DNA from: Minisyncoccia bacterium
GTDB taxonomy: Bacteria; Patescibacteriota; Minisyncoccia; Phycocordibacterales; Zambryskibacteraceae
Reading direction: 5' to 3'
Length of the DNA: 64,000 nucleotides
Assembly (NCBI GenBank): GCA_041742965.1
Contig: JBGTNQ010000012.1
Span: 1,379 to 65,378 of the forward strand
The position numbers were made by a program, and so were the translations under genes. This document shows, one piece after another, positions 13,863 to 44,666 of this stretch. Each line of letters starts with the position of its first letter. Position 1 is the stretch's first letter. The notes beneath the pieces are model-generated. The model was not told the origin of the DNA. It saw only the letters and a program-made list of their open reading frames with translations, and ran no database searches.

Positions 13863-13960
13863 ATAATACTACGTCGTCACCCCTCGCTTCGCTCGGGATG
13901 GTTAAAATATAAAACACTTAGGATAAGCATTAAGATTTTATACCAGCTGCCGGACTTGGA

Positions 13961-14112
13961 CCGTGAGTACACTATCGGTCACAAGTTCTGGCTTACTATC
14001 CAGACTCGCGACCCCGTCTCGTCCGCCCAAGGCGGACTGCGACTTTCGATTCCAATCTCGGCTAGAAATGATGCTTCGCGCAGACTGCATTTAGCAGTCT
14101 TTGCGAATCATT
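13961..14112 (-). repeat. tRNA-3'-end-associated element E6 (152 nt), flanked by 15-nt direct repeats of the tRNA-Gln 3' end
   Basis: gctgccggacttgga occurs at 14113-14127 (tRNA T-arm/acceptor) and again at 13946-13960. The element carries agtccgccttgggcggacgagacggggtcgcgag and ends ...aacttgtgacc next to the distal repeat. Confidence 0.6.
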
Positions 14113-14113
14113 G

Positions 14114-14184
14114 CTGCCGGACTTGGAATCGAACCAAGATACACAGCTTCAAAGGCTGTTGTCCTACCTTTAGACGATCCGGCA
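14114..14184 (-). tRNA. tRNA-Gln (anticodon TTG)
   Basis: Minus-strand cloverleaf: acceptor TGCCGGA/TCCGGCA (U1:A72), anticodon stem ACAGC/GCTGT with loop CTTTGAA, and T-arm CTTGG-TTCGATT-CCAAG. Confidence 0.8.
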
Positions 14185-14320
14185 AAATACTAACTAGCTG
14201 TTAGCTTATAGCTTAAAGCTTTTAGCTTAGAAAGCGGAAAAGATTCAAAAACAACAGCTGACATCATACAACTTACAATAAAATTGACAGAAATGGAAAC
14301 TTTTAGGCGCACTGAGAATT

Positions 14321-15382
14321 CTAGGCGTTGGTTGATAGAATTTTTATTAAAGCGAGCTCAACAGGGAGCTCCGGAATGTGAGACCTGCCACACTCTCCAT
14401 ACGCGCCCAAAAGCTCAGAAAGAGAAGATGAGCTAATACCCTGTTTTTCTTTTTTTGAAAGATCACTAAGAAAAGAGAAATCTTCTTCAGAGACCTTTTC
14501 CTTTATGGGCTTTTCCATATCTTTCGCAAATTTGAGTAATAAAACAAAACGCATTTTTTGTAGTGCTAATCTCAAAAAAACTTTCGTATCACTATTCCCT
14601 TCTAGGGCCTTGTGCAAAGCGCCAAGAGAGGCGGATACATCTGAGGAAGAAACGGCGCTCACGAAATCATTGATAATGCTATTTCTAGGAGCACCGGTTA
14701 TTTTTTCTACTTCCTCAAGAGAAATCTTTTTATCAGAAGAAAAACTCAAAACTTTTTGAAGCATTCCTTGTGTATCACGAAAGGAGCCGTCTCCTAAGAT
14801 GGCAATAAGCTCTGCGCCAGCGTTGTCTATTGAATACCCTTCAGCTTTTGTAATGGATACAACCATATCTCTCAAAATACTTTCTGTAGGCTTCTTGAAT
14901 TGAAATACCTGACATCGAGAAACTACAGTTTCGGGGAGCTTATCTGTCTCTGTGGTTGCAAGAATGAAAACAGCGTGCTTTGGTGGTTCCTCTAATGTTT
15001 TTAAAAGAGCATTGAAAGCGGACTTAGAGAGCATGTGCGCTTCATCCAAAATATATACCTTATATGGAGACTCGAATGGTAGGGTCAGGACAGACTCATT
15101 CAAGTCTCGCATATTGTCTACTCCTGTATTTGATGCGGCGTCTATTTCATATAAATCATTTGCGGAACAGCCAATTTCGCGAGCAAATATACGAGCTACA
15201 GAAGTCTTGCCTGTTCCCCGAGAACCTGCAAAAAGATATGCGTGTGCTATCGAGCCGTTTTTTATTGAAGATTCTAATACGGAAACAACATGGTCTTGAC
15301 CGACAACGTCTTTGAATTTTTGTGGGCGATATTTTCTATACAGTGCGGTTTCTTGAGTAGAATTGTCCCGAGAAGATTTCAT
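14321..15382 (-). CDS. dnaX: DNA polymerase III subunit gamma/tau
   Basis: YRKYRPQKFKDVVGQ, GSRGTGKTS, YILDEAHML and the sensor motifs. The start is taken at MKSSRDN because the longer ORF extension crosses the upstream gene's terminator. Confidence 0.85.
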   Translation of the reverse strand: MKSSRDNSTQETALYRKYRPQKFKDVVGQDHVVSVLESSIKNGSIAHAYLFAGSRGTGKTSVARIFAREIGCSANDLYEIDAASNTGVDNMRDLNESVLTLPFESPYKVYILDEAHMLSKSAFNALLKTLEEPPKHAVFILATTETDKLPETVVSRCQVFQFKKPTESILRDMVVSITKAEGYSIDNAGAELIAILGDGSFRDTQGMLQKVLSFSSDKKISLEEVEKITGAPRNSIINDFVSAVSSSDVSASLGALHKALEGNSDTKVFLRLALQKMRFVLLLKFAKDMEKPIKEKVSEEDFSFLSDLSKKEKQGISSSSLSELLGAYGECGRSHIPELPVELALIKILSTNA

Positions 15383-15447
15383 ATAGGAAGGATTATATAA
15401 CAGAAGACGAATAAGGAAAAATGAAAATTGAAAAAAGAAAGATGAAA

Positions 15448-15496
15448 GAGAAGGGAAAAACAACAGGCGGGGTTGCGCAATGCGCAAACCCCGCCT
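15448..15496 (-). terminator. Rho-independent terminator of the Big_2 lipoprotein gene
   Basis: Hairpin ggcggggtttgcgca/tgcgcaaccccgcc followed by gttgtttttccc on the minus strand. Confidence 0.6.
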
Positions 15497-15515
15497 TTGA
15501 TCCCGTGAGGGACCC

Positions 15516-16157
15516 CTACGGTCTAACAGTCACAAACATCCCAGCCTGAAGCCTGCCCATGGTCGGATGGACCGCCTCGGTCTCCGCCATGATTTGAATG
15601 GGCGAATTCGCTCCAGCGGGATTGACGGACCACGCGGTGATCTCGCAAGTCACCGGATTTACCGTGGCGACCGCTGCATTTGTGGAGAAGCAGCGATACC
15701 CAACCGAGATCCCTTCATCCGCAGTAACCTTCACCACCGGAGTGAACTTCTGTCCGACTCGCAAGTCCAGACTGGTCGGGGTGATAGTGATGCCCCTCAA
15801 CTGCGGGCGATTCACCACCACTACCACGACAGTGTCCTTCTTTGCCGGATCGGCGCGCGAGGTGCCAGAAACCCGACCCTTGCCGAGACCAACACCGGTC
15901 ACGAGACCGGTGGAGGAGACCTGAAGCACGCTCGGATTGAGCGAACTCCAGATGACATCCTTGTCAGTAGTGCCAGTGACGACAGCAATGAGCTGAACCG
16001 ATTCGTCCTGATAAATCTGTGACGAGTCAGGCGACAACCTGATGGTGACCGTGGGCTTTGACGGCCCAGTGGGGTCACCGTGGTCATCACAATCGTGCCA
16101 TCTCGTGCACCCCGCGAGGGTGACGAAGAAAAGCAAGAAAACGGTGCGAGCGAGCAT
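15516..16157 (-). CDS. lipoprotein with Big_2 (bacterial Ig-like group 2) domains, in a GC-rich islet
   Basis: Signal plus lipobox MLARTVFLLFFVTLAGC. The tandem domains VTIRLSPDSSQIYQDESVQLIAVVTG...LQVSSTGLVTGVGLGKGRVSGTS are Big_2-like. GC is far above the flanks. Confidence 0.7.
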   Translation of the reverse strand: MLARTVFLLFFVTLAGCTRWHDCDDHGDPTGPSKPTVTIRLSPDSSQIYQDESVQLIAVVTGTTDKDVIWSSLNPSVLQVSSTGLVTGVGLGKGRVSGTSRADPAKKDTVVVVVVNRPQLRGITITPTSLDLRVGQKFTPVVKVTADEGISVGYRCFSTNAAVATVNPVTCEITAWSVNPAGANSPIQIMAETEAVHPTMGRLQAGMFVTVRP

Positions 16158-16789
16158 CGTGCCCTCCTGGGGCTGAATGATTTGACTGAATATGTTACAG
16201 AGCTTTCTTGCCGGACACTACCATTTTAAATGTAAAAAGTCAAGAATATTTATAGCTAGTTAAGGTAGAGGTCTCAGACCTCTAGAAAACCCATAAATGA
16301 GGCTCTTTCATAAAGCCTCCCGCAAATATTACAACATTTCAATGCGGTCACTCGCGAGCGACAAGTTTAAAATTTTTTAAATTAAAATAGGCAAACGAAA
16401 AGGCGGCTGCTATTGAGAGCAAACCGCCTCTCTCATTTTTGATTGGTCCTGCGGGAGGGAGACTACTCGAAACTTCGGTAAAAGTCGCGCAGAGGAACGT
16501 TCCTACCACACCCAGTCAATGGATTGATCTGGTGTGGCGATTGGAAACCGTGATGGTTGGCCGTGCTGTGTGGGTGAACGGAATCAGCTTCGACAATCGG
16601 ATCAGTTTGATCCCCACTGCCGATCAATCCAGACTCGACCATCATTTCGGTGAGTCCATCACACTGAGCATCGCTTAACATCTAGACACCATACCTTCCT
16701 TGTTACGGGTAAAAATAATACTACGGGGGAACTACTTCTATTTTGATATTACAAATATGGAGAAGAAAGTCAACATCATAGTAAGTTTA

Positions 16790-17875
16790 TTATGCCTTTT
16801 CCACCCTTACTAAAAACTCATTCACAATAGATTCCACTTCCCTAACATTTTCTGCCTCCATAAGTTTAGTTCGAAGCTCGTGAGCTCCACTGAAACTAAA
16901 AACATCCGACTTCGCCAAAGCTACGCCAGACAAGTACGATTTGAAATGCTTCTTCATCAAAGCAAAACTTTTTGTATCACCCAAAAGCTCCTCAAAAAGT
17001 TTTGTATGCTCTACTAAGACGCGGAGTTTTTCTTTAAGAGAAGGGGTGTATACTTCGACTCGCTTCACTCGCTCAGTATGCTCAATCTGGCTATCGCGAT
17101 TCTCGCGAGCCAAATTGGCAAACAAAAACGGATTGCCGAAAATAGCTCGTCCAAGCATAACCCCATCGGCACCGCTCTCTTTTCCTTTTTTTATTGCATC
17201 TTCAACATCTAAAATATCACCATTGCCGAATATAAGAGTTTTTGATTTTAAACTGTCTCGAATTTCTACAGCACGACGAACCTCTTCCCACCTCGCTGGA
17301 ACCTTAGACATTTCTTTTCTAGTTCTAGCATGAATGGTCACAACAGATGGTTCTTCTGCAAGAAGCTCTGGTAACCAAGTATCGAGCTCGTCTTTGTTAT
17401 ATCCGATACGAGTCTTCACAGATACAGGTAGATCCCCCGCACCCTCTTTGGCAGAACGGAGTACTTCACGAGCCCGCTTATAGTCCTTCATCATACTTGC
17501 CCCAGCTCCCTGCTTTTCAATACTTTTGTCAGGACAGCCCATATTTATATCTATGCCATCAAAACCAAGCTCTCTACAAAGTACACTGGCTTTTTTCATA
17601 TATTCTGGATTTCCAGAAAAAAGTTGGGCTACTATGGGGCGTTCCTCTTCTGAATACATGAGGTCCTTCAAAAGCTTCTTCTTGCCATCTTCGGTGGCAC
17701 GGATAAGACCATCAGCTGACACGAACTCAGTCCACATCGCATCTGGCTTACCATACTTTGCTATGACATGACGAAAAGAAGCATCTGTGACATCTGCCAT
17801 GGGGGCGAGGACAATAATGGGTCGGTTCTCTTTTATGCTCGACTCTTTAAGTTTTTTCCAAAATCCAAGATTCAT
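16790..17875 (-). CDS. dusB: tRNA-dihydrouridine synthase
   Basis: PMADVTDASFR, DINMGCP and VKTRIG motifs of a Dus-family TIM barrel. Confidence 0.85.
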   Translation of the reverse strand: MNLGFWKKLKESSIKENRPIIVLAPMADVTDASFRHVIAKYGKPDAMWTEFVSADGLIRATEDGKKKLLKDLMYSEEERPIVAQLFSGNPEYMKKASVLCRELGFDGIDINMGCPDKSIEKQGAGASMMKDYKRAREVLRSAKEGAGDLPVSVKTRIGYNKDELDTWLPELLAEEPSVVTIHARTRKEMSKVPARWEEVRRAVEIRDSLKSKTLIFGNGDILDVEDAIKKGKESGADGVMLGRAIFGNPFLFANLARENRDSQIEHTERVKRVEVYTPSLKEKLRVLVEHTKLFEELLGDTKSFALMKKHFKSYLSGVALAKSDVFSFSGAHELRTKLMEAENVREVESIVNEFLVRVEKA

Positions 17876-18060
17876 AATTATTATTTAAGCACACACAATA
17901 TCACAATTGTATTCACCCCGTAGTAGATTTTGTTCCTGAGTACAAAATTCACTACAGGGTTGACCTTGTGTAAAGAGGAGTATAGACTTTTATATGGACC
18001 TCTTTATAGAGGAGTTTACGTTCCATCAATACCCACCATTTACCCGCCCGGAGGATTCAC

Positions 18061-18636
18061 ATGCACAAACAGCAAGTCCGCGCCTTGGACAGGGTCGCGG
18101 AGGTCATCTGGCAGAATGGGCTGTCCAAGAACAGCTATCTCTCTCTGGAGAGCATCGTGCTGGTACTCACCTTCATCAGCAAGAGAGACGATACCGGCCA
18201 CATCAGGCAGTTAAACTTCCTGGAATGGTCAATTCTGCTCGAAAGCACCCGGCAGTTGTCTGGCTACGGCAAGTACAACTGGAGAATGCTTTATCTCCTG
18301 GTCTTGAGGATTGGAATCCGTGATTTCCTTTCTCAAGAACCGGCTGGTGGCCTCGAACGCTGTCGGAAAATAGACTGGCTCTCAAGCCTGTCTAGGGAAC
18401 TTTCTCCTCAAGGATTTCTTCGGGAGAATCTCCTGCCCGACAACAGCGGTGAGTTCACAGAAGTTGTGGTCCCACTTCTCGACGTTCTACACCAGAGCGC
18501 CGAAGTGCTGGATGCCAGTCGCCATCTCAAGACGCGAATCATCCGCGCCAAGAAGATGAGACCGACTGCAAGGGTGCGAAAAATCAGATCCTGGTTTGTC
18601 CGCGAAGAACACTGGATGATGGTAGCACATGCCTAG
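18061..18636 (+). CDS. hypothetical protein (191 aa) in a GC-rich islet
   Basis: SD GGAGG is 6 nt upstream of the ATG, and a 13-bp GC hairpin terminator follows at 18675-18708. GC is higher than the flanks. No recognisable domain. Confidence 0.5.
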   Translation: MHKQQVRALDRVAEVIWQNGLSKNSYLSLESIVLVLTFISKRDDTGHIRQLNFLEWSILLESTRQLSGYGKYNWRMLYLLVLRIGIRDFLSQEPAGGLERCRKIDWLSSLSRELSPQGFLRENLLPDNSGEFTEVVVPLLDVLHQSAEVLDASRHLKTRIIRAKKMRPTARVRKIRSWFVREEHWMMVAHA

Positions 18637-18873
18637 AGCGGGAGGAGGAATTTAACTTCCCCCCAATCAGGCCAGAACCCCACGGCGCACTGCGACGCCG
18701 TGGGGTTCTATCATTATATAAACCTTATAAAAGCGGTATTAACCCCGGGGCAAGCCCCAGTCAAAGAGCGTTCGCTCCACTCGCTCTTTGTCGCCCCAAG
18801 GGGCGGGTTATTAACCCTTATATTAGCTCCTCGGCTCGGAAATGAAAAAGATTACTTTTTCATTCCTCTCGCT

Positions 18874-21327: not shown

Positions 21328-21650
21328 AGGATTAAGATTATTAACCCAACGAGCATCCCCATTACTAGAGAGAAAAAACCCATAACTAACACACTGGCCC
21401 GAACAAAAAAACCAAAAGCTCTCATAATCGAATTTATCAAGAAAGACACCAAGGCCTCTTTTGGATGGAAACCGGACCTATACCCCTCACCCATCCTCTC
21501 CCACGGAGAAAAGAGGGTTTTAAACAATACAGATAAAGAAAAGAAGTCGGCTAAAAAATGAATAGCGTGGAGGATATTGTTAGTCAAATCCCTTATTCCC
21601 CTCGTATAATGCCAACGAAAATAGTTTGGAAGAAATAGAATTGCATCCAT
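21261..21650 (-). CDS. hypothetical small membrane protein
   Basis: 129-aa ORF with a hydrophobic C-terminal half. No family recognised. Overlaps the upstream end of the Clp-like ORF. Confidence 0.35.
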   Translation of the reverse strand: MDAILFLPNYFRWHYTRGIRDLTNNILHAIHFLADFFSLSVLFKTLFSPWERMGEGYRSGFHPKEALVSFLINSIMRAFGFFVRASVLVMGFFSLVMGMLVGLIILILWIIYPIILPFILAISLRFIFS

Positions 21651-21714
21651 GTATATAGTATAGCGTGCTATTTTTAAGAAAACAGAAGACTGTGGTGGAT
21701 TAGAATCTAAAAAA

Positions 21715-22536: not shown

Positions 22537-22540
22537 AATC

Positions 22541-23812: not shown

Positions 23813-23904
23813 GGTTGATTTGATTTATAACCAGCAGTCCCGAACCTCCACAAGGCCTACCCTAATGACACTATGGTAGCAAAAATTGATAGAATAGAAA
23901 ATAT

Positions 23905-24834: not shown

Positions 24835-27027
24835 TTGACCCTAATGGCAAAAGGTAATGGAAAAAAACTTCTGATTGTCGAGTCGCCGGCGAAAGCAAAA
24901 ACAATCTCAAAATATCTAGACGGCGAATATGAAGTAGTCGCTTCTATTGGGCATGTTCGTGATTTACCTAAAACAAATAAAAAGGCAATAGATATTGAGG
25001 GAGGCTTCATTCCACACTATGAAATATCTAAAGGTAAAGAAAAAGTAATAAGTGAAATAAGAAAATTAGCAGGAGGAGCAGAAGATGTCATCCTGGCCAC
25101 AGACCCCGACCGTGAAGGAGAGGCTATAGCTTGGCATATTAGTGAGGCTGTGGGCCTTAAAAATCCAAAGAGGGTAGTCTTCCACGAAATCACCAAAGAG
25201 GCGGTAACAGAGGCAATAAAGCATCCACGGGATATTGATTTAAACCTTAAGATTGCCCAAGAGGCGCGCCGAGTACTGGACCGACTAGTTGGATACGACC
25301 TATCTGGACTTATTTGGAAAAAGGTCAGATACGGCCTTTCTGCTGGCCGTGTCCAATCTCCTGCACTCCGCATCATCATGGAGCGAGAGAGAGAAATCCG
25401 AGCTTTTAAACCTGAAACATTCTGGACAATATCCGCTGACTTTACCACAGAGAAAAATCTAATGATCACCTTGATCTGTGATGAAGAACCTAGAGAAGAA
25501 AAGGGAGTTATAAATATTTTAGACACAGCCAAAAAAGAACCTTGGTCAATTATTGATATAAAAGAGACAACAGTAAAAAGATCTCCTCGACCCCCCTTCA
25601 TCACTTCAACACTTCAACAAACAGCCAGTTCTAGATTAGGGTTTTCTCCTTCACGGACAATGGGTGTGGCACAAAAGCTTTATGAAGCTGGACTCATTAC
25701 ATATATGCGTACCGACAGCACCAACTTAGGGTCTCAGGCCAAAAAACAGATTGAGGAAGTAATAAAAAACAAGTTTGGAAAACAATACTACGAACCACAC
25801 TCTTATAGTAAGAAAAGTAAAAATGCTCAAGAAGCTCATGAAGCAATAAGACCCACAGACTTCGGGAAAGAAACTGGTGGTATAAATGAAGAACAGAAAA
25901 AACTCTATAATCTCATCTGGGCCAGAACAGTTGCCTCTCAGATGGTCTCCGCCGATACTCTTCGTACAAAAATAAGTGCCAATGTTAAAAGTGCTTCAAT
26001 ACCTAATTTTTCTATAACTGGATCCCGTGTCATATTTGATGGGTGGCTCATCGCTGATCCAAGGGCACGACAAGAGGATGTGGAGCTCCCAAAATTATTG
26101 AAAGGCGAAAATATCATACTCAAAGATATAAAAAGTGAAGAAAAGGAGACTACCCCACCCGCCAGATATTCAGAAGCTGGACTCGTAAAAGAACTTGAAA
26201 AAAGAGGCATAGGTAGACCTTCAACATACGCCTCAATAATAAAAACTATTATAGATAGAGGCTATGTACTAAAAGAACAGCGTGCGCTCGTACCGACGGA
26301 CACAGGGGATGTGGTGAGTTCTTTTCTCGAAGGAAATTTCGGAGACTATATAAGCGACACCTTTACCGCAGAGATGGAGAACAAGCTTGATGATATTGCT
26401 ATTGGTAAAAGAGAGTATGTAAAGACACTTTCTGATTTTTACAAACCATTTTTGAAAGATATAAAATCTAAAGATAAGTTGGAGAAACTAACAAATATGG
26501 GCGTGGCTGATGCAAAGTGGAAGTGTCCAAAATGCGGAAGTGGAATGATTATTAAGCTCGGAAAAAATGGCCGTTTCTTATCTTGTGATAAATTCCCTGA
26601 CTGCACAGGAGCACGAACTATAGATGGTGAAGAGATAATGGGGCCCAAAGATACGGGAGAACTTTGCCCAGAATGTGGTAAGGCTAACTTAGTAGAGCGC
26701 GACGGCCGATTTGGAAGATTTATAGCATGTGGCAGATACCCAAAATGTAAATTTGTAAAAGAAGACCCAGAAGCCAGAAAAAAACTACTAACAGGTGTTA
26801 AGTGCCCTGTATGTAAGGACGGAGAAATGATGGAAAGAAGGGGACGATTTGGTATTTTCTATTCCTGTAGTAACTATCCCAGTTGTAAAAATGCAATAAA
26901 AGCTAAGCCAACAGGAAACATGTGCCCTATGTGCAATTCCCTCATGATGGATGGCACGAAAACTATACCAGAACGCTGTAGTAACAAGAGCTGTGCAAAC
27001 CACAACCCGCATAAACTAATGAAGTAG
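24835..27027 (+). CDS. topA: DNA topoisomerase I with C-terminal zinc ribbons
   Basis: TOPRIM motifs LLIVESPAKAKTI and DPDREGEAIAWH, the catalytic region, and four C4 zinc ribbons. Confidence 0.9.
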   Translation: MTLMAKGNGKKLLIVESPAKAKTISKYLDGEYEVVASIGHVRDLPKTNKKAIDIEGGFIPHYEISKGKEKVISEIRKLAGGAEDVILATDPDREGEAIAWHISEAVGLKNPKRVVFHEITKEAVTEAIKHPRDIDLNLKIAQEARRVLDRLVGYDLSGLIWKKVRYGLSAGRVQSPALRIIMEREREIRAFKPETFWTISADFTTEKNLMITLICDEEPREEKGVINILDTAKKEPWSIIDIKETTVKRSPRPPFITSTLQQTASSRLGFSPSRTMGVAQKLYEAGLITYMRTDSTNLGSQAKKQIEEVIKNKFGKQYYEPHSYSKKSKNAQEAHEAIRPTDFGKETGGINEEQKKLYNLIWARTVASQMVSADTLRTKISANVKSASIPNFSITGSRVIFDGWLIADPRARQEDVELPKLLKGENIILKDIKSEEKETTPPARYSEAGLVKELEKRGIGRPSTYASIIKTIIDRGYVLKEQRALVPTDTGDVVSSFLEGNFGDYISDTFTAEMENKLDDIAIGKREYVKTLSDFYKPFLKDIKSKDKLEKLTNMGVADAKWKCPKCGSGMIIKLGKNGRFLSCDKFPDCTGARTIDGEEIMGPKDTGELCPECGKANLVERDGRFGRFIACGRYPKCKFVKEDPEARKKLLTGVKCPVCKDGEMMERRGRFGIFYSCSNYPSCKNAIKAKPTGNMCPMCNSLMMDGTKTIPERCSNKSCANHNPHKLMK

Positions 27028-27031
27028 ATTT

Positions 27032-27158
27032 GGAAGTGCGCAGTCTTCACTGCATACGCGCAAGTTTTCGTGAGACGGAGGCATATTTTTTCAGCAGAAA
27101 AAATGCCGAGTCGGGGTCGCAGAACCCCGCCCCTGACGAGGGGCGGGGTATTTGTGAC
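27032..27158 (+). repeat. element E1 (~127 nt) inserted at the topA 3' end, flanked by 75-nt direct repeats (26957..27031 and 27159..27233)
   Basis: The repeat cgaaaactatacc...gaagtagattt, which includes the topA stop codon, occurs twice. The insert carries ttttttcagcagaaaaaa and ccgagtcggggtcgcag and ends atttgtgacc. Confidence 0.65.
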
Positions 27159-27233
27159 CGAAAACTATACCAGAACGCTGTAGTAACAAGAGCTGTGCAA
27201 ACCACAACCCGCATAAACTAATGAAGTAGATTT

Positions 27234-30345: not shown

Positions 30346-30416
30346 GGGCGATTAGTTTAGTGGTAGAACAGCGGTCTCCAAAACCGCTGGCGAGGGTTCG
30401 ATTCCTTCATCGCCCG
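30346..30416 (+). tRNA. tRNA-Trp (anticodon CCA)
   Basis: Acceptor GGGCGAT/ATCGCCC, anticodon stem GCGGT/ACCGC with loop CTCCAAA, T-arm GGGTTCGATTCC. Confidence 0.8.
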
Positions 30417-30420
30417 CAAT

Positions 30421-30548
30421 GATTCACGAAAACAGCCGGGGGCTGTTTGAGTGATTTATCAATGCGAGGTGGATGAGGAATCGAAAGCCGGAGGCAGACG
30501 TGCCGAGGCGGGGTCGAGAGATTTTTCAGCAGAAAAATACTCGTGACC
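30421..30548 (+). repeat. element E2 (128 nt) between 21-nt direct repeats of the tRNA-Trp 3' end (30400..30420 and 30549..30569)
   Basis: gattccttcatcgcccgcaat, running from the T-loop to the discriminator plus 4 nt, is duplicated. The insert carries ggaatcgaaag, ccgaggcggggtcgagag and atttttcagcagaaaaa and ends tactcgtgacc. Confidence 0.65.
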
Positions 30549-30588
30549 GATTCCTTCATCGCCCGCAATCTAGTTATATTTATATATC

Positions 30589-34217: not shown

Positions 34218-34241
34218 AATGCGCCCAAAATAAAAGTATTT

Positions 34242-35164: not shown

Positions 35165-35199
35165 ATCACATAGTAGCGCCGGTTTGGCGGATTACTTCT

Positions 35200-35814: not shown

Positions 35815-35912
35815 TTTATATATTTTTTATTTTTAATACGGATAATTCGACCTTTTCCATACAACAACGGAGCCGAATTACCTCTGGAGGTATTACAAAT
35901 ATAAAAAATGCT

Positions 35913-35953
35913 CAAAGCCCCACTTGGAAACTTAGTTTCCAAGTGGGGCTTTG
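35913..35953. repeat. palindromic element CACTTGGAAAC family, copy 1 (20+20 bp perfect hairpin)
   Basis: caaagccccacttggaaact-t-agtttccaagtggggctttg. On the minus strand a U-tract follows, so it is terminator-like. Confidence 0.7.
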
Positions 35954-36120
35954 AGGTATTGAAAATCTCAGTGTTTATACTGAGCGGACTAAGCGAGTCG
36001 GAGTATCGCCGGGAAGGATTCGGTCAGGAGTTTTCGTCTACTGACAAAACTCACAACCCTGCCTCCCTCGCCTTCGCTCGGTCCGGCTTTCTCGTCTCTA
36101 CCCGGACAGCACCGACTTGC

Positions 36121-36153
36121 AAAAAAGCTGAGTCCTCATGACTCAGCTTTTTT
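36121..36153. terminator. bidirectional terminator hairpin
   Basis: aaaaagctgagtc-ctca-tgactcagcttttttt. Confidence 0.65.
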
Positions 36154-36161
36154 TAGCAAGT

Positions 36162-36244
36162 GTGCGCCGGGAAGGATTCGAACCTTCGTAGCCCGAAGGC
36201 GAGAGATTTACAGTCTCTTGTAATTGACCACTCTACCACCGACG
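36162..36244 (-). tRNA. tRNA-Tyr (anticodon GTA)
   Basis: Minus strand: acceptor GCGTCGG/CCGGCGC (one G-U pair), anticodon stem AGAGA/TCTCT with loop CTGTAAA, long variable arm, T-arm GGTTCGAATCC. Confidence 0.75.
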
Positions 36245-36284
36245 CAATGTCCTCCATTCTATCGGAGAGCTGATATTTTACAAG

Positions 36285-38987: not shown

Positions 38988-39041
38988 ATGGGTGTATAAA
39001 ATACAATAATTGTCCTCTAGAGTCAAACAAGTCTAACAAAA

Positions 39042-39848
39042 TTATCTTGCTAGATAGTCTGTAATCGCCGACTTAAGAAGTGATACGGGAAGATAAATTG
39101 GAGAGTTAGACGGGGTAGTACGCCCAGATCGCATACCCACCAACTCCCCCGATAGATTAAACAGCGGGGAGCCGACTACGGAACTCTTGTGGATAATGTC
39201 TGTTTCAAATCCATATTGAGTCGTTGGATCAGCTTGATCTGAATACAAGAACGAGGACATTCTTCCTATAGAAATAGTATTATTTTCTTGCCCCTCAAGG
39301 GTTATAACTGACTGACCAAGTTTCAATTCCAGATTGCCTACAGTAACCGGGGTGCCGGAGAAAGAGGTGCCATCCTTTGGTACGATTTTAAAGAAAACAA
39401 CAGAACGTTTCTCATCTTGGCCTAAATAATCTAAAACAAAATCTGTCTTATCAAAAAGAGTTGCTGTATAACGACCTCTTTCATTAAACGAATCTCGGGT
39501 TGGTGTAACTACTAAACCTCCGGGAGACAAAATTGTCCCGATGCCATAAAAATTATTGGCAATGTCACGGATTCTGACAATGCTAGAAGAATTTTTCACC
39601 ACAGTATCAATAACTTGATCCTCTTCTTTAACTACAACCGTAACCTCTCTGACTTCTACAGTATTCTTCCCACTACCTTCTGACACAACTGTCTCGATTG
39701 TTTTTTCAACAACTCTGTTTATGGTCTGAGTAACCAAAGGTGGCGCCTCCTGAAGGAGTGAGAAAGTAATAATGCCTGTAGCAATAGACGTAACAAAGCT
39801 TACCAAAAGAGTAAGTAAGACAAGCTGATTTTTTGTTAGATCTTCCAT
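39042..39848 (-). CDS. membrane-anchored trypsin-like (HtrA/S1C-like) domain protein, possibly catalytically degenerate
   Basis: TM anchor, then ...VVGSPLFNLSGELVGM, which resembles the GNSGGPL.N..GE.IGI block of S1C but with altered residues. Confidence 0.45.
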   Translation of the reverse strand: MEDLTKNQLVLLTLLVSFVTSIATGIITFSLLQEAPPLVTQTINRVVEKTIETVVSEGSGKNTVEVREVTVVVKEEDQVIDTVVKNSSSIVRIRDIANNFYGIGTILSPGGLVVTPTRDSFNERGRYTATLFDKTDFVLDYLGQDEKRSVVFFKIVPKDGTSFSGTPVTVGNLELKLGQSVITLEGQENNTISIGRMSSFLYSDQADPTTQYGFETDIIHKSSVVGSPLFNLSGELVGMRSGRTTPSNSPIYLPVSLLKSAITDYLAR

Positions 39849-39879
39849 TCCCCTATTATAAGAGAATTGCCAAGTCAAA

Positions 39880-41073
39880 TCAAACAACACGAGACCTGCG
39901 AACCATCTCTGGAATTGTGTTTAAAAGAATCTTTATATCTTCTGTTTTTGTTCCCCTTCCCAAAGAAAAGCGAATCGATGATTTTGCGCATTCAATCCCA
40001 CCTAGCACCTCTATAACATCTGAGTGCAAATCTTCCTTTAAGCTTTTGCAAGAACTCGCTGTAGAGCAAAGAATTCCGAGACTGTCAGCAACAATGACCG
40101 CGTACTCAGCATCCATATCAGGAAAACAAATATTTATATTGTTGGGCAATCTCTCTTTTAGATCACCGTTTAGACTAGACCCTGGAACACTTTTCAGCAC
40201 TTCTCTAATAATCTTTTCCCTAAGTGGGGTTAATCTCTTTGTCTCTTTCTCACTCATAGACCGAGCTATTTCAAGAGCAGTAGCAAACCCCACAATAGAT
40301 GGTAAATTTTCTGTACCGGAACGAAGCCCCTTTTCCTGACCTCCACCAAAAACAACCGGCGCGATGTTAACGCCACGACGAGCCCACAAGACGCCTATGC
40401 CTTTTGGTCCATATATTTTTGACCCATCTAAAGAGAGAAAATCGACGCCCAAGCTCAGTGTATTCAAAGAAAGATAATTTGGCGCCTGGCTAGCGTCTGT
40501 ATGAAAGTACGGATATGAAGAGGGTGTTTTTGGGGATTTTCTAAAGTCACGAATTATTTTAGCAATTTCTCTTATTGGCTCGATGGTTCCGATCTCATTA
40601 TTCGCATACATTATTGAAACGAGAACAGTATTTTTATTTATGATGGTCTTTAAGTATTTCAAATCGACAATACCCTGACTATCGACCGGAACAATACTCA
40701 TGCTCCCGCCCCTTCTCTCTATCTCATCTTTTAACCCCAAAACTGCTGGATGCTCAATGGACGAAAAAATGACATGCGGTTTAGTAATATGTTTTCTTGC
40801 TTCAGTTACAATACCCAAGATGGCAATATTATTTGACTCTGTTCCACTACCCGTAAAAAAAATTTCATCAGAATGACCATGAAGCACTGCCGCAACTCTT
40901 TTGCGTGAATTTTCTAATACATTCCTCACCTCAACCCCTTCCCTATAAAGAGCGGATGGATTATGAAAAGATTTTGAAAAATATGGCCTCATAGCCAACA
41001 AAACCCTCGGATCAACCGGCGTAGTAGAGGCGTAGTCGAAATATATTCTCTTTTGTTTTTTTCTATTAATCAC
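39880..41073 (-). CDS. iscS: cysteine desulfurase (class V aminotransferase)
   Basis: YFDYASTTP, the PLP-lysine region SLDGSKIYGPKGIG, and the catalytic Cys loop SSCKS. Confidence 0.85.
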   Translation of the reverse strand: MINRKKQKRIYFDYASTTPVDPRVLLAMRPYFSKSFHNPSALYREGVEVRNVLENSRKRVAAVLHGHSDEIFFTGSGTESNNIAILGIVTEARKHITKPHVIFSSIEHPAVLGLKDEIERRGGSMSIVPVDSQGIVDLKYLKTIINKNTVLVSIMYANNEIGTIEPIREIAKIIRDFRKSPKTPSSYPYFHTDASQAPNYLSLNTLSLGVDFLSLDGSKIYGPKGIGVLWARRGVNIAPVVFGGGQEKGLRSGTENLPSIVGFATALEIARSMSEKETKRLTPLREKIIREVLKSVPGSSLNGDLKERLPNNINICFPDMDAEYAVIVADSLGILCSTASSCKSLKEDLHSDVIEVLGGIECAKSSIRFSLGRGTKTEDIKILLNTIPEMVRRSRVV

Positions 41074-41200
41074 CTTAATTTTGTGAACCAGTTATATCAC
41101 GCAGAATCGACTTCGTGAATAGTCTTTATATTTATCCTTTTCAGAAGGGGTATTTTTTTGTATACTGGGAACCTCTTATTAGTACTTTTATTTATAAATC

Positions 41201-41683
41201 ATGCCCATCCTCCTCGAGACTTCAACGATGATATATGTCCTGCTTGGCCTCATTATCGTCCTTATCGTTTGGATAATCAGACTAGAAATAAGGCTAAGAA
41301 ACCTTCTTTTGGGTAAAGATGGCAAAAGCCTGGAGGACACTATAAAAACGATACTGGGAGATATAAAAGACTATGAAAACTTCAAAAGAGAGTCTATACA
41401 ATATTGGAAAAATATAGAAAACAGGCTAAAGAGAAGTATCCAGGCCGTTGAGACAATTCGTTTCAATCCGTTTAAAGGCACAGGGTCAGGAGGAAATCAA
41501 AGTTTCTCTACCACGCTCCTAAATGAAAAAGGGGACGGTGTAGTGATTTCAAGTCTATATTCAAGAGAACACATTAGTGTATTTTCTAAACCTATAAAAA
41601 AATTCAGCTCTGAATTCGAAATGACAGCTGAAGAAAAGGAGGTTATAAAACAAGCAAAAGAAAATATCGTCCAAGGTAAATAA
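41201..41683 (+). CDS. DUF4446-like membrane protein
   Basis: N-terminal TM, then IRFNPFKGTGSGGNQSFSTTLLNEKGDGVVISSLYSRE, which resembles the DUF4446 signature. Confidence 0.4.
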   Translation: MPILLETSTMIYVLLGLIIVLIVWIIRLEIRLRNLLLGKDGKSLEDTIKTILGDIKDYENFKRESIQYWKNIENRLKRSIQAVETIRFNPFKGTGSGGNQSFSTTLLNEKGDGVVISSLYSREHISVFSKPIKKFSSEFEMTAEEKEVIKQAKENIVQGK

Positions 41684-41690
41684 TAAAAAA

Positions 41691-43187
41691 ATGAAATCAG
41701 AAGATGAAAAAGTCATAGAAAGACCGCCCGTGATTACTATCATGGGGCATATTGACCATGGAAAATCCACTCTTCTCGACTACATTAGAAAAACAAACAT
41801 TGTAGACAAAGAAGCTGGAGGTATTACTCAACACCTTTCAGCATATGAAGTCAGCCATGTAAACAAAGACAGTATAGAAAAGAAGATCACATTTCTTGAT
41901 ACCCCAGGACACGAGGCGTTTGGAGCAATCCGCGCCAGGGGGGTGAAGGTGGCGGATATCGGTATTTTAGTAGTATCTGCAGAGGATGGAGTAAAACCCC
42001 AGACACTCGAGGCCTTGAAGGTGCTGAAGGTAGATGGAATCCCATTCGCTGTCGCAATAAACAAAATAGATAAACCTGGAGCAAGCGTTGAAAGAACAAA
42101 ACAGAACCTGGCTGAGAACGATATCTTCATTGAGGGTTATGGTGGAGATATTCCGTGGGTCGCGATATCTGCAAAAACCGGAGACGGCATTCCAGAACTA
42201 TTAGACCTGCTTTTACTTATTGCCGAACTAGAGGAACTGAAAGGAAATCCAGAAGAGGGTGGCTCCGGTATCATAATAGAAAGTAATCTAGATACGAAAA
42301 AAGGAATCATCGCCACAGCAATTATAAAAAACGGCACCGTTAAGGGTGGTCAGTTTGCGGTCTGTGGGGAAAGCATCTCCCCCCTCAGGATTATTGAAAA
42401 TTTTTTGGGAAAAAAAATAAATGAAGCGTCCTTTTCGAGCCCCATTCGAATCATAGGATGGGATTCAGCCCCAAAGGTAGGAGAAGAATTCATTTGTTTT
42501 GATGACAAAAAAGAGGCCGCTTCTTTTGCGGAGAAAAACAAAATACCGACAAATACACAGAATCAAGTTGAAGCAGATGGTAAAACTCTTATACCTATAA
42601 TCGTTAAAACGGATACAGCGGGAAGCTTGGATGCTTTAGTATATGAAATATCAAAACTTGAAAATGAGCGCATATCACCAAAAGTCGTATTGTCAGGCAT
42701 AGGGCCGATATCTGAAAATGATATAAGAGTAGCTAGTAGCCACGAAAAACCATTGGTCGTAGCCTTTCACAGCCCAATAGACGCCCAAGCAGGAAGTCTA
42801 GCTCTAAGACTGGGTATATCCATAGAACAATTCGACATTATATACAAACTAACAGAGTGGTTAGAAAAAGCTTTGGAAGACAGAACCCCTAAAATAGAGA
42901 CGGAAGAAACAACTGGCCAAGCAAAAATATTGAAACTTTTTTCTAAGACAAGAGAGAAGCAGGTTTTGGGTGGGCGCGTTGAATCTGGAGAAATTGTTTC
43001 TGGAGAGCAGGTAAAAATAATGAGACGAGATGTTGAAATCGGTCGCGGTAGAATCCGTGAATTACAAATACAGAAAGAGAAAATAGGAAAAGTAGAGGAA
43101 GGAAAAGAATTTGGAGCAATGATAGAATCTAAAGCAGAGATCTCCCCTGGAGACAAAATAGAGTGCTTTGCGACGGTAAGTAAATAA
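41691..43187 (+). CDS. infB: translation initiation factor IF-2, short form
   Basis: G-domain motifs [14 protein letters not shown] and NKID, then the C-terminal beta-barrels. 498 aa with no N-terminal extension. Confidence 0.9.
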
Positions 43188-43191
43188 AAAA

Positions 43192-43524
43192 ATGAAACCG
43201 ATAAGTTATCGAAAAGAAAAACTTCCTGAACTTCTCCAACACTTGGCCGCAGAGTTCATAACCGAAGAGTCAAATAGAACTTCACTTATAACAATCACAG
43301 GGTGTCGCCTATCAGCTGATAGTAAAAGGGCAGTTTTGTTATTTACTGTTCTTCCAGAAAATCAGGAAAAGGCCGCTGTAGATTTTCTAAGCAGAAAAAA
43401 CCTAGCGTTCAAAAAATTTGTGCGAGAAAAATCACGAATAGGTAGAATTCCAATGCTATCGTTTGCGCTAGATATGGGAGAAAAAAATAGACAAAAAATT
43501 GATTTTCTTCTCTCTTCTGACTAG
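43192..43524 (+). CDS. rbfA: ribosome-binding factor A
   Basis: Sits directly after infB; KH-like fold motifs (RTSLITITGCRLSADSKRAVLLFTVL). Confidence 0.6.
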   Translation: MKPISYRKEKLPELLQHLAAEFITEESNRTSLITITGCRLSADSKRAVLLFTVLPENQEKAAVDFLSRKNLAFKKFVREKSRIGRIPMLSFALDMGEKNRQKIDFLLSSD

Positions 43525-43645
43525 TATTGTAAGTCTGGTAGAATAAGAGATGCCCAAAAGATGTGGTGCTAAAGCTTCGTGAACGGGACAGAGAGGTGTA
43601 AAACTTTAAGTTATGATATTGATAAGGCGTGGTGGCCAAGTGGTA

Positions 43646-43717
43646 AGGCGAAGCTCTGCAAAAGCTTTATTCACGGGTTCGATTCCCGTCCACGCCTCAA
43701 GTAAAAAGTATGACTTT
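43646..43717 (+). tRNA. tRNA-Cys (anticodon GCA)
   Basis: Acceptor GGCGTGG/CCACGCC, anticodon stem AAGCT/AGCTT with loop CTGCAAA, T-arm GGGTTCGATTCCCG. Confidence 0.8.
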
Positions 43718-43727
43718 AGTGTGATAT

Positions 43728-43870
43728 CTTTTACTTTGATGAGGACGGAAGTATGCAAATTTATTTGCATACTTAGGGAATCGAAAGGCGCAGTGATATT
43801 TTGTGAGTTCACAAAATTACGAGCCGTGGTCACGACCGAGCCGAGCGACGGCGAGGTGAGAGTTGTGACC
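43728..43870 (+). repeat. element E3 (~143 nt) between 27-nt direct repeats of the tRNA-Cys 3' end (43701..43727 and 43871..43897)
   Basis: gattcccgtccacgcctcaagtaaaag is duplicated. The insert carries gggaatcgaaagg, ttttgtgagttcacaaaa and gtggtcacgacc and ends gagttgtgacc. Confidence 0.65.
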
Positions 43871-43945
43871 GATTCCCGTCCACGCCTCAAGTAAAAGTGT
43901 GGCTTTGTAAGACATCTTTTACTTAGTTGGTGTGAAGAAATATAT

Positions 43946-44028
43946 GCCCGGGTGGTGGAATGGTATACACGGCGGACTTAAAATCCTCTGGCCGCAAGGC
44001 CATGTGAGTTCGAGTCTCACCCCGGGCA
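43946..44028 (+). tRNA. tRNA-Leu (anticodon TAA, tentative)
   Basis: Acceptor GCCCGGG/CCCGGGC, long variable arm, anticodon loop CTTAAAA with one mismatch in the anticodon stem, T-arm GAGTTCGAGTCTC. Confidence 0.65.
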
Positions 44029-44034
44029 CAATAT

Positions 44035-44107
44035 GCGCCCATAGCTCAGTTGGTAGAGCTGCTCCCTCTTAAGGAGAAGGTCGTAGGTTCAAATCCTACT
44101 GGGCGCA
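44035..44107 (+). tRNA. tRNA-Lys (anticodon CTT)
   Basis: Acceptor GCGCCCA/TGGGCGC, D-arm TAGCTCAGTTGGTAGAGC, anticodon loop CTCTTAA, T-arm GTAGGTTCAAATCCTAC. Confidence 0.8.
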
Positions 44108-44379
44108 CAGAAGCTACAGCAACCTGCCCTGCGGCAGGTTTTGTGCTTCTGTGCGGACCGGAGCCATGTTTTGTGACCACACAAAACAGACGAGGTGGGG
44201 TCGAGAAATTTTGTGAGCGACGGCGAACAAAATATTCGTGACCACAAAGGACGCAATTGGCATGATCAAGATTTTTCCGTCAGGAAAAATACTTGTGACC
44301 ACAATCCTGTGCGAACCATACTTCCCCTCTCACAAACAATACTTGTGACCCGAGTTAAATATGATAAAGTATTTCTCAT
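44108..44379 (+). repeat. E4: tandem array of four short units, each ending in ...GTGACC, with AT-stem hairpins, between tRNA-Lys and tRNA-Leu
   Basis: GTGACC at 44173, 44238, 44295 and 44345, each followed by acacaaaa / acaaagg / acaatcc (tRNA-trailer-like). Internal cgaggtggggtcgag, ttttgtgaccacacaaaa and atttttccgtcaggaaaaat. Confidence 0.6.
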
Positions 44380-44461
44380 GCTGGGGTGGCGGAATTGGTA
44401 TACGCGCTAGTCTTAGGAACTAGTGGAGAAATCCATAGGAGTTCAAGTCTCCTCCCCAGCA
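44380..44461 (+). tRNA. tRNA-Leu (anticodon TAG)
   Basis: Acceptor GCTGGGG/CCCCAGC, anticodon stem CTAGT/ACTAG with loop CTTAGGA, long variable arm, T-arm GGAGTTCAAGTCTCC. Confidence 0.8.
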
Positions 44462-44466
44462 CAAAC

Positions 44467-44595
44467 GAAAGTAGTGAGTTTGTGCTCTAGGCGCATTTTT
44501 TGCTTTGCAAAAAGAGCAGAGACTTGAAGGCCGGAGTCCGCCTTGGGCGGACGAGGCGGGGTCGCGGACTTTTTCAGCAGAAAAAGATCTGTGAC
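44467..44595 (+). repeat. element E5 (129 nt) between 22-nt direct repeats of the tRNA-Leu(TAG) 3' end (44445..44466 and 44596..44617)
   Basis: aagtctcctccccagcacaaac is duplicated. The insert carries ggagtccgccttgggcggacgaggcggggtcgcggac and ctttttcagcagaaaaag and ends atctgtgacc. Confidence 0.65.
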
Positions 44596-44666
44596 CAAGT
44601 CTCCTCCCCAGCACAAACTCACTACTTTCGTTTGTGCTGTATAAAATTTGACTTTTTGCTTGTTTT

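Follow-up and report, generated by a model that had tools for sequence, protein, structure and literature searches.

What are the short sequences that stand between the 3' ends of tRNA genes and second copies of the same ends in the genome of a Minisyncoccia bacterium? The DNA in question, hereafter the window, is a 64,000-nt stretch of a Patescibacteria genome (contig JBGTNQ010000012.1 of assembly GCA_041742965.1, positions 1,379 to 65,378, forward strand). A reading made from the letters alone (the sequence-only reading) had placed such inserts at six loci, behind four tRNA genes, behind the topA gene and in a tandem array between two tRNA genes. All six are present, and a seventh copy behind tRNA-Tyr was found with R1, a covariance model of the element core that was used to score the window and the comparison loci. 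ARAGORN and Rfam annotate eight tRNA genes in the window and no other known RNA; the seven copies occupy six of these tRNA genes and topA. With very high confidence, they belong to a real, conserved family of structured sequences that is found across Patescibacteria at tRNA T-loops. The interpretation favored here, with moderate confidence, is that the family consists of non-autonomous, guide-directed insertion elements that make a gene-restoring duplication of the target. The key feature is an internal guide complementary to the target, which the sequence-only reading missed.

The common layout of the elements includes a variable 5' hairpin (P1), often terminator-like, a linker, a hairpin P2 with a 3-bp base and a G/A-rich internal loop, the dinucleotide GG, and a long hairpin P3. 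The base of P3 is GGUCRC/GYGACC, and its 3' strand ends exactly at the downstream (distal) copy of the gene end. The guide, 6–13 nt long and complementary to the first bases of the target, is followed by a 4-nt GNRA-like joiner and P2. The family thus combines covarying P2 and P3, an in-register guide with its 4-nt joiner, a fixed site (T-loop 56/57 or another) and a duplicated gene end. The terminus GTGACC, said to be invariant in the sequence-only reading, does vary: the Tyr copy ends in CTGACC and the element of L141 in GCGGGA (L-numbers are labels of comparison loci from other assemblies and metagenomes). In a motif scan of the window, the conserved core CGAGnCGGGGTCG...GTGACC is present at 13977–14021 (minus strand), 27107–27159, 30504–30548, 43820–43870, 44191–44243 and 44552–44596, with approximately zero matches to the six-motif pattern expected by chance. 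The R1 scores of the seven copies are 44–76 bits (six at 59–76), and the next best match in the window scores 13 bits. The copies and their targets are as follows, with the fold z-score and the R1 score given where a copy has them.

14113–14184, minus strand: tRNA-Gln(ttg); the last 15 nt (14113–14127) are the proximal repeat.
13977–14112, minus strand: Gln element copy, with P1, guide TTGGAATC (14048–14055), joiner GAAA (14044–14047), P2, and a P3 with the terminus GTGACC; the guide is complementary to GATTCCAA, positions 57–64 of tRNA-Gln, with 10/12 pairs; z −6.1, 63.5 bits.
13946–13976, minus strand: Gln 3' flank, a 16-nt module GATAGTGTACTCACGG (13961–13976) followed by the distal 15-nt repeat TCCAAGTCCGGCAGC (13946–13960).
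26957–27031, plus strand: topA proximal repeat of 75 nt, made up of the final 70 nt of topA with its stop codon (27025–27027) and a further 4 nt.
27032–27159, plus strand: topA element copy, with guide AAGTTTTC (27062–27069), which pairs with GAAAACT, the start of the repeat, joiner GTGA (27070–27073), P2 and P3; z −7.3, 73.6 bits.
27159–27233, plus strand: topA distal repeat of 75 nt, 100% identical to the proximal one.
30346–30420, plus strand: tRNA-Trp(cca), with the proximal repeat CGATTCCTTCATCGCCCGCAAT (30399–30420).
30421–30548, plus strand: Trp element copy, with the 5' terminus AATGAT.., P1, guide GATGAGGAATC (30472–30482), which is the reverse complement of target nt 1–12 with one base missing, joiner GAAA (30483–30486), P2 and P3; z −4.7, 76.1 bits.
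30548–30569, plus strand: Trp distal repeat of 22 nt, an exact copy of the tRNA-Trp 3' end.
36022–36161, minus strand: Tyr element, the seventh copy, behind tRNA-Tyr (36162–36245), found by R1 and then read directly; terminator-like P1 at about 36108–36152, core 36022–36101 ending in CTGACC; 44.5 bits, E 2.8e-10.
36007–36021, minus strand: Tyr distal repeat of 15 nt, GAATCCTTCCCGGCG, which copies tRNA-Tyr from position 57; the proximal repeat is 36165–36179.
43626–43741, plus strand: tRNA-Cys(gca) with trailer and terminator hairpin; exact proximal repeat 43680–43706, with a degenerate extension to 43741.
43742–43870, plus strand: Cys element copy, with P1, guide GGGAATC (43776–43782), joiner GAAA (43783–43786), P2, P3 and the variant core CGTGGTCA; z −5.6, 59.3 bits.
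43870–43929, plus strand: Cys distal repeat, identical in 27/27 nt (to 43896), then a diverged yet intact terminator hairpin with 77% identity, to about 60 nt.
44109–44243, plus strand: Lys element copy, directly behind tRNA-Lys, of the discriminator-site 'ACAA' class and without a T-loop duplication; the short guide TGT(G) pairs with the flank ACA; z −5.4, 69.6 bits.
44244–44350, plus strand: two 5'-truncated older copies, each ending in TACTTGTGACC; the first is a P3 hairpin with terminus (44271–44300), the second a terminus alone (44330–44350). The flank after the terminus is ACAA... for the full Lys copy and the first remnant, and CGAG for the second; R1 gives a weak partial match at 44267–44295.
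44380–44466, plus strand: tRNA-Leu(tag), with the proximal repeat (C)AAGTCTCCTCCCCAGCACAAAC (44444–44466).
44467–44596, plus strand: Leu-TAG element copy, with guide GAGACTT (44519–44525), joiner GAAG (44526–44529), P3 TTTTTCAGCAGAAAAA, and a P2 identical to that of the Gln copy; z −5.2, 71.8 bits.
44596–44640, plus strand: Leu-TAG distal repeat, the tRNA-Leu 3' end (22–23 nt, to 44618) followed by the same trailer hairpin as in the proximal copy.

The tandem array that the sequence-only reading described at 44108–44379 is real; in detail, it consists of one full copy (44109–44243) and the two 5'-truncated remnants. The sequence itself is reproduced by a short-read assembly that was made independently from the same sample and that breaks at the repeats. 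The Logan assemblies of SRR28170462 (L001, L168, L169) contain short-read contigs of the same organism that end exactly inside the topA and tRNA-Trp repeats. Identical proteins were sought in other samples, and none were found outside the source sample.

All the tested window copies fold better than shuffled sequences (z = −4.7 to −7.3). RNAalifold, run on an alignment of 79 element sequences from many genomes (A2), gives 20 core pairs, with double compensatory changes in 13 of the 20. In this alignment, 98.0% of the core cells are paired, compared with 75.2 ± 0.7% in shuffled controls and 35–47% with the partners slid; cells with double (compensatory) changes number 335, compared with 101 ± 7 in shuffles, and the covariation score is 0.579, compared with 0.149 in shuffles. 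The fold z-scores, the covariation and the near-zero chance expectation for the pattern bear out the earlier claim that the inserts share structure and sequence and are not random. In the core helices, G.U cells are common (about 130) and A.C/C.A cells nearly absent (about 4), so that the fold belongs to the gene-sense strand. The hairpin modules form a mosaic among otherwise divergent window copies. The P2 module GTCCGCCTTGGGCGGAC is the same in the Gln (14022–14038) and Leu-TAG (44535–44551) copies; TTTTTCAGCAGAAAAA is P3 in the Trp (30521–30536) and Leu-TAG (44569–44584) copies but P2 in the topA copy (27087–27102); and the loop GAGCGACGGCGA is common to the Cys (43840–43851) and Lys (44215–44226) copies. 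Judged from these sequences, the mosaic suggests recombination between copies.

The bases immediately 5' of P2 co-vary with the sequence that follows GTGACC, e.g., GGAATC with GATTCC, GAGACTT with AAGTCTC, AAGTTTTC with GAAAACT (topA) and TTGTG with (C)ACAA. In a fixed register, 70% of the first 8 positions form canonical pairs, compared with 49 ± 1.9% (maximum 54.7%) after the flanks were exchanged at random among loci and 32–45% in shifted registers. The longest guide helices reach 12 bp (CCGTCGAGAATC/GATTCTCGGCGG in L079; 12/12 in L114, L121, L017 and L085). The joiners seen are GAAA, GCGA, GCAA, GTGA and GGAA; in the variant ...ATGA-GAAA, tandem G.A pairs replace the first two pairs. Accordingly, GGAATCGAAAG, listed in the sequence-only reading as a conserved motif, turns out to be a variable target-complementary guide together with the GAAA joiner. 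A hammerhead-like reading of GAUGAG...GAAA was rejected, because these bases are guide and joiner and vary with the target. In the structural model, the helix between guide and target (P0) closes a three-way junction and stacks the element 3' end on the initial target base. Elements that are close relatives, with cores about 90% identical, bear different guides, each fitting its own target. In 15 T-loop cases the two repeat copies differ, and in 14 of these the guide fits the functional gene no worse than it fits the adjacent distal copy; in L114, it makes 12 pairs with the functional tRNA and 4 with the adjacent copy. The guide therefore records, or still recognizes, the target and did not co-evolve with the relic.

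The five direct-repeat pairs reported for the window, with 15–27 nt at the Gln, Trp, Cys and Leu tRNA genes and 75 nt at topA, all proved exact on re-reading (Gln 15, topA 75, Trp 22, Cys 27 and Leu-TAG 22–23 nt). The tRNA repeats begin inside the T-loop, as had been claimed, namely at C56/G57, right after GGTTC. At about 35 loci elsewhere, GGTTC precedes the proximal repeat and the distal repeat begins at nt 0 after GTGACC. In most intact T-loop cases, the repeat ends 0–8 nt beyond the tRNA and is about 17–23 nt long; overall, the duplications range from 15 to 90 nt. The topA repeat, in a gene identified by its TopA domains (Pfam), runs to 4 nt past the stop codon; the repeat in L028 runs to a stop codon. 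The topA site is fixed, 70 nt ahead of the stop codon, and elements sit at the identical codon position in L028 and L038. A second, less frequent target class comprises the discriminator (...GCGC|ACAA...) of tRNAs for Lys, Arg, Ala, Val and Glu; the copies there have a TTGTG-like guide and little or no T-loop duplication. Because the gene end is duplicated at insertion, the upstream gene stays intact and the downstream copy is a relic; the distal repeats range from perfect to heavily mutated.

Two other origins of this arrangement were considered and rejected. The repeat is not a copy of a mature tRNA 3' fragment, i.e., RNA-derived, because, where the gene has no encoded CCA, CCA is missing from the distal repeat as well. 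Nor is the element a T-loop intron interrupting a tRNA: copies without an upstream tRNA have no abutting tRNA 5' part, and four copies that seemed to lack a tRNA turned out to follow tmRNA.

Comparison of orthologous loci, which the sequence-only reading had proposed as a search for empty sites, shows that most of them are empty. The IF-2-Cys-Leu-Lys-Leu gene order is kept in more than 15 metagenome loci, and the elements are present there only in L141 and in the window. In the closest relative, L122 (84% IF-2 identity), tRNA-Cys is identical to that of the window and is followed by one trailer hairpin and then by tRNA-Leu, i.e., a clean single-copy site; the Cys-Leu spacer is 54 nt in L122, with a single gene end, versus 248 nt in the window. 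The elements behind tRNA-Lys in L015 and tRNA-Arg in L053 share about 95% identity over their whole length, from just behind the tRNA to the right terminus, although on both sides each of them is bordered by the end of its own tRNA. The repeat is therefore made from the local target and is not carried on the element. Other pairs with about 90% identical cores also occupy different targets (tRNA-Gly in L042 and tmRNA in L061; tRNA-Ser in L003 and the Trp copy of the window), and downstream of younger copies there are older ones in truncated or tandem form (44244–44350 in the window, L075, L025). Among the explanations that the sequence-only reading left open, a miniature family mobilized in trans is the one favored by the empty orthologous sites, the near-identical elements with local repeats, the tandem and decayed copies and the lack of an encoded protein.

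A pattern scan of one genome per species gave at least 120 stretches. R1, run on the first 100 of these, yields about 75 matches at 50–90 bits, from Patescibacteria metagenome-assembled genomes (about 70 loci). The carriers include Saccharibacteria, Paceibacterota/Parcubacteria, Nomura-, Kaiser-, Adler-, Campbell-, Taylor-, Zambryskii- and Moraniibacteria; three carrier bins are labelled Elusimicrobia. Matches to the pattern in high-GC actinobacteria score at most 28 bits with R1, and 15 matches on viral contigs, without tRNA context and with at most 23 bits, were dismissed as chance. At almost every locus, a tRNA on the same strand, of nearly any isotype, ends 40–70 nt upstream; about 20 different tRNAs are used, and many of the 8-kb loci contain two or three copies. 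Four loci that appeared to lack a tRNA follow smpB and tmRNA, two copies are convergent to 5S rRNA (Rfam), and solo copies between protein-coding genes are found in L008 and L036.

No protein was linked to the elements. Pfam searches of about 50 open reading frames (ORFs) of the window identified no transposase, integrase, reverse transcriptase or TnpB; the ORFs next to the tRNA-less copies include nothing TnpB-like; and clustering of the neighboring ORFs over 76 loci gave only housekeeping neighbors, with no enriched family. A cognate tyrosine integrase, for which the sequence-only reading had proposed a search, is present neither in the window nor beside the 76 loci. The proposed Rfam comparison was negative as well: Rfam 15, searched at the gathering threshold and permissively at E <= 10 (the latter over 43600–44700, which includes three copies), has no match to the element; apart from noise, the only families returned over the window and the comparison loci were tRNA, tmRNA, 5S, RNase P and one group I intron. 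Searches of the literature turned up no account of the family; the nearest work (PMC13011429) deals with anticodon-loop group I introns of Patescibacteria tRNAs.

Guide-directed insertion could proceed as follows. The element would be mobilized in trans, as a single strand, and the guide would select the target by pairing with the unwound sense strand from G57 onward. Paired in this way, the element would have its 3' end (...GACC) in position to be joined to G57. The other strand could then be broken as well, about 18–20 nt downstream or sometimes farther, at the far edge of the opened region, with the direct repeat arising by fill-in. The active strand might be DNA, as in IS200/605, integron attC and CTX phage, or RNA, similar to introns or ribozymes, in which case reverse transcription would be needed. 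The T-loop would be favored as a target because it is universal and because a duplication of about 20 nt from position 57 would exactly regenerate the tRNA.

A more specific version of this proposal, offered only tentatively, is that the family represents a new class of self-guided mobile nucleic acid. The three-way junction would then be either a catalytic RNA or the substrate of an unrecognized Patescibacteria enzyme, and the 12–13-nt guide, rewritten from the new target at each hop, would open the target. The element might join its own 3' end at 56/57, with the stagger of about 18–20 nt set by the opened bubble. Such a system would be minimal, protein-less and programmable through its guide, and would spare essential genes because it rebuilds the gene ends.

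Several points weigh against insertion as outlined here. No transposition intermediate, enzyme or autonomous parent was found, and mobility is deduced from comparative patterns only. The presence/absence pattern could reflect repeated precise loss by recombination between the repeats instead of gain, and recombination or gene conversion among copies could mimic transposition in the core comparisons. The 17–90-nt duplication is, to our knowledge, far longer and more variable than that of any known transposase. Insertion of this type requires a 12-nt guide to be rewritten for every new target, and the guide of L082 does not match its own flank. The pairwise identity among the window copies is only about 50%, which indicates no recent burst and means that the family is old in this genome. 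Several 'invariant' core positions (GGUC/GACC, CGAG, GGGG) were imposed by the search pattern; these positions do vary in the Cys and Tyr copies of the window and in L141. Finally, some distal repeats look like intact foreign alleles and not like decayed copies, namely the L028 topA end, the Cys trailer of the window and L141. In the L028 topA distal copy, the first 32 nt are identical, 6 of the subsequent approximately 11 differences are synonymous, and the frame and the zinc-ribbon residues are kept; in the window, both Cys trailers retain the terminator hairpin. The allele-like copies could be accommodated by an extra assumption, later homologous exchange with element-free relatives, with crossing over inside the distal repeat; DprA is encoded in these organisms. 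A model in which the repeat is carried by the element, similarly to attP, is suggested by the same copies and is contradicted, for retargeting events, by L015 and L053.

The explanation that competes best with insertion, although we consider it unlikely, is that the elements are host non-coding RNA genes that are vertically inherited with tRNA and tmRNA units and encode an RNA for processing, folding or quality control, or a self-cleaving ribozyme that cuts at GUGACC|N. Selection or gene conversion would maintain the match of the 3' tail and the guide to the neighboring tRNA, and the presence/absence pattern would stem from loss. Such a role fits the position of the elements on the same strand as, and directly behind, tRNA or tmRNA at almost every locus, the sense-strand-specific, G.U-rich fold with its GNRA-like joiner and tandem G.A motifs, the occupancy of six of the eight window tRNA genes, the phylum-wide conservation of the core, and the fit of the guide to the functional tRNA where the adjacent copy has changed (the 14 of 15 cases and L114). 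It is at odds with the emptiness of most orthologous tRNA sites, including those of the closest relative, with the free decay of the distal repeat and the existence of truncated tandem remnants, and with the placement of copies inside the topA coding end (with the 75-nt duplication), convergent to 5S rRNA, and on their own in L008 and L036. The permissive Rfam search found no known RNA family, and specifically no self-cleaving ribozyme (hammerhead, twister, twister-sister, pistol, hatchet, HDV-like or hairpin) in 43600–44700. Furthermore, terminator-like hairpins with T-runs separate the gene from the core in the Lys, Leu-TAG and Tyr copies of the window and in L042, L061 and L118, which argues against obligatory co-transcription, with read-through still possible. 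Of the earlier suggestion that the elements are RNAs co-transcribed with the tRNAs, the sense-strand fold and the RNA-like motifs stand, whereas the terminator-like hairpins in front of the core and the decay of the distal repeat speak against it.

Clearly less probable is an origin as PATE-like derivatives of an IS200/IS605-type transposon, in which the element would be an omega RNA scaffold, the distal repeat its guide and GTTC the TnpA target or target-adjacent motif (TAM), with TnpA or TnpB encoded elsewhere mobilizing or retaining the copies. The elements share with IS200/IS605, PATEs and the TnpB omega RNA small, hairpin-rich ends that are active on a single strand, a choice of site that relies on the pairing of an internal guide, and a short fixed motif 5' of the insertion, here GGTTC. 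A right-end scaffold of about 100–135 nt that ends in a hairpin is followed at once by 17–22 nt equal to the flank, i.e., of guide length, and the distal repeat is preceded by ACC instead of TTC, which would avoid self-targeting. TnpA of the IS608 type reportedly picks its sites by pairing of an internal guide with the flank or cleavage site. However, known IS200/IS605 elements make no target duplication, whereas 15–90 nt of the target are duplicated here (exact repeats of 15–75 nt at five window copies, and repeats at about 35 other loci), and the guide of this family, 6–13 nt in length, pairs with a 3' flank about 80 nt away and not with a 4-nt site at the foot of a hairpin. No tnpA or tnpB is linked to the copies in the window or in the approximately 76 loci, and there is no match to an omega RNA or IS605-associated family in Rfam. 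The flank lengths do fit an omega RNA guide of 16–20 nt, but the scaffold pairs with the initial 6–12 nt, and seed pairing would thereby be blocked; moreover, the intact proximal target with its TTC would stay cleavable, and repeats of 36–90 nt exceed the guide length.

It is very unlikely that the copies are miniature integrative elements whose folded single strand is the substrate of a tyrosine recombinase (of the Xer, IntI or phage type), with the repeat as an att identity block and with P3 stacked on P0 presenting a duplex copy of the T-loop core site. The T-loops of tRNA and tmRNA are said to be the classical sublocation for island integration. Like the islands and phages that use tyrosine integrases, the elements occupy the same genes at the same position, regenerate the gene end and form tandem arrays; the identity block extends from the crossover to slightly beyond the gene end, some distal copies resemble intact alleles of foreign origin (e.g., the L028 topA end), and P0 recreates a target duplex next to an invariant half-site. 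Unlike them, the elements are only 100–170 nt long, carry neither integrase nor cargo, have a conserved single-strand fold, use many different tRNAs within one family, and take the repeat from the local target, so that the local repeats of L015 and L053 are not an inherited attP block. No integrase is linked to the copies in the window or at the 76 loci, and no second, inverted core-type site is evident. The junction at 56/57 does lie inside the T-loop, but, with identity starting from C56, only 5 of the 7 bases of the T-loop overlap are identical. The analogy to tyrosine integrases drawn in the sequence-only reading holds for the position, and no defining att-site feature could be demonstrated.

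That the copies are decayed arm remnants of islands or prophages, as also suggested earlier, or chance or assembly artefacts is scarcely credible: the position at tRNA 3' ends with flanking direct repeats fits, but the covarying fold across phyla-level lineages, the recurrence in many Patescibacteria classes, the uniform size, the same architecture behind about 20 tRNA isotypes, the lack of a nearby integrase and, for an artefact, the independent short-read assembly with the same sequence all stand against it.

Further known systems share some of the features of the family. Group II introns (EBS/IBS) and group I introns (IGS) also have an internal guide complementary to an 'exon' flank and a structure conserved through covariation, and introns are common in Patescibacteria tRNA genes (PMC13011429); the elements are, however, far too small, match no intron model, lie behind a restored gene end where no splicing is needed, and pair with the 3' side only. 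Integron attC sites and the attP site of CTX phage resemble them as strand-specific, folded recombination sites of about 60–150 nt that leave a short repeat. In contrast, the family forms a three-way junction instead of one imperfect hairpin, makes a long repeat, and has no R/L boxes (GTTRRRY) or dif-like half sites; no evidence of intI or Xer was found in the ORFs of the window or of the comparison loci, and GTTRRRY boxes are absent from the element sequence. The bridge or seek RNAs of IS110/IS1111 are likewise structured RNAs of about 150 nt with loops that pair with the target and a programmable site, but they are encoded next to a DEDD recombinase, their target and donor loops are paired, and they make no long duplication; none of these features is seen in the family. 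Bacterial miniature inverted-repeat transposable elements (Correia, RUP, BOX, ERIC) are also short, protein-less, multi-copy, intergenic and structured; the family differs in having no general terminal inverted repeats or fixed 2–9-bp duplication, and in its strict site and orientation and its target-matched guide. Only in the AATGAT subfamily is there a weak match of 8–9 nt between the ends, noticed by eye. As each known class fails at least one checkable defining feature, the family is treated here as a new kind.

If the insertion reading is correct, the family would consist of highly compact mobile elements. A short programmable guide would select the site, the target would be the T-loop, the most conserved sequence of the cell, and the host would be spared because exactly the displaced gene end is duplicated. 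The family would join guide-directed site choice, known from group II introns, IS200/605 and bridge RNAs, regeneration of tRNA ends, known from integrase islands, and miniature non-autonomous elements, which so far have been seen separately. In practice, the repeats fragment short-read assemblies, and the pseudo-tRNA ends can confuse annotation.

Several variants of the family deserve description. A conserved module GA(A/T)AGTGTACTCAC(G), 13–16 nt in length, separates the GTGACC terminus from the distal repeat in independent loci and lineages, namely in the Gln copy of the window and in L015, L053, L114 and L121 (two copies); L092 and L063 have a variant of it. In these copies, the guide has kept its perfect fit to the tRNA (up to 12/12). 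The module might represent a footprint or, in a subfamily, an extension of the 3' terminus. In L141 (5957–6190, behind tRNA-Cys), the divergent terminus is ..GGTGCGGGA and the distal acceptor strand TCAGGCC resembles the tRNA-Cys allele of other lineages (CCAGGCC), not the resident CGTGGCC. The two elements convergent to 5S rRNA (L004, 971–1056; L027, 3683–3767) have a doubled terminus, GTGACCGGGTGTGACC, and a local hairpin at the joiner in place of the guide; in L027, a partial 5S copy is present on the other side of the element. In L048 (6255–6643), the gene immediately downstream of the element is a tRNA gene with a group I intron (Rfam Intron_gpI, 58 bits); the 3' flank of the element resembles an antisense tRNA D-arm, and the repeat consists of the tRNA 5' flank and the first 10 nt, with a similar arrangement in L071. 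In L117 (about 3700–3830), the C-terminal end of an IS3-type transposase ORF and a terminal repeat abut the 5' end of an element that is 97% identical to that of L082; the insertion sequence was therefore inserted between the target gene and the element.

A related element, denoted 'Y', is located behind tRNA-Lys in L122 (6822–6947). It is about 110 nt long, with a 17-nt repeat of the tRNA end (TCCTACTGGGCGCACC), and has the layout of the family (anti-flank AGGAAT, GAAA joiner, P2 with tandem G.A), but its P3 is different and short and it is missed by R1; the superfamily is probably broader than R1 detects. Just upstream of the intact tRNA-Lys of the same locus (6598–6745), two tandem units of about 62 nt each open with the first 12 nt of tRNA-Lys (GCGCCCATAGCT); this is a different small insert, which duplicates the 5' end of the tRNA gene. 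Further downstream (7440–7830), three tandem repeats of about 120 nt with the palindrome TGTACGATATATCGTACA adjoin a small ORF (about 7030–7430).

In the window, a trailer hairpin AGCACAAAC-loop-GTTTGTGCT follows both repeat copies of tRNA-Leu(tag) (44466–44494 and 44618–44646), and its loops of 11–12 nt are reverse-complemented between the copies, GAAAGTAGTGAG versus TCACTACTTTC. The protein-coding genes of the window are ordinary for a genome of the Saccharibacteria type (DprA, TopA, ParB, MiaA, a short IF-2, a sortase, type IV secretion system (T4SS) pilins, Clp ATPases and FtsA/Z). The genomes of Patescibacteria (candidate phyla radiation) are in general tiny, their tRNA genes are single-copy, and few mobile elements are known from them. 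Immediately behind the tRNA cluster, a block at 44000–48000 has a GC content of 0.48–0.50, compared with about 0.40 elsewhere. It includes an ORF (44667–45794) with a weak Band_7 match and a 489-aa multi-pass membrane protein (45916–47385) without a Pfam match. The possibility that the unannotated ORFs at 44.7–47.4 kb encode nucleases was rejected, as they are membrane or T4SS-type proteins. Beyond these ORFs lie four T4SS-pilin-like genes (47779–49757, minus strand), and the GC-rich block may be a horizontally acquired T4SS-related island.

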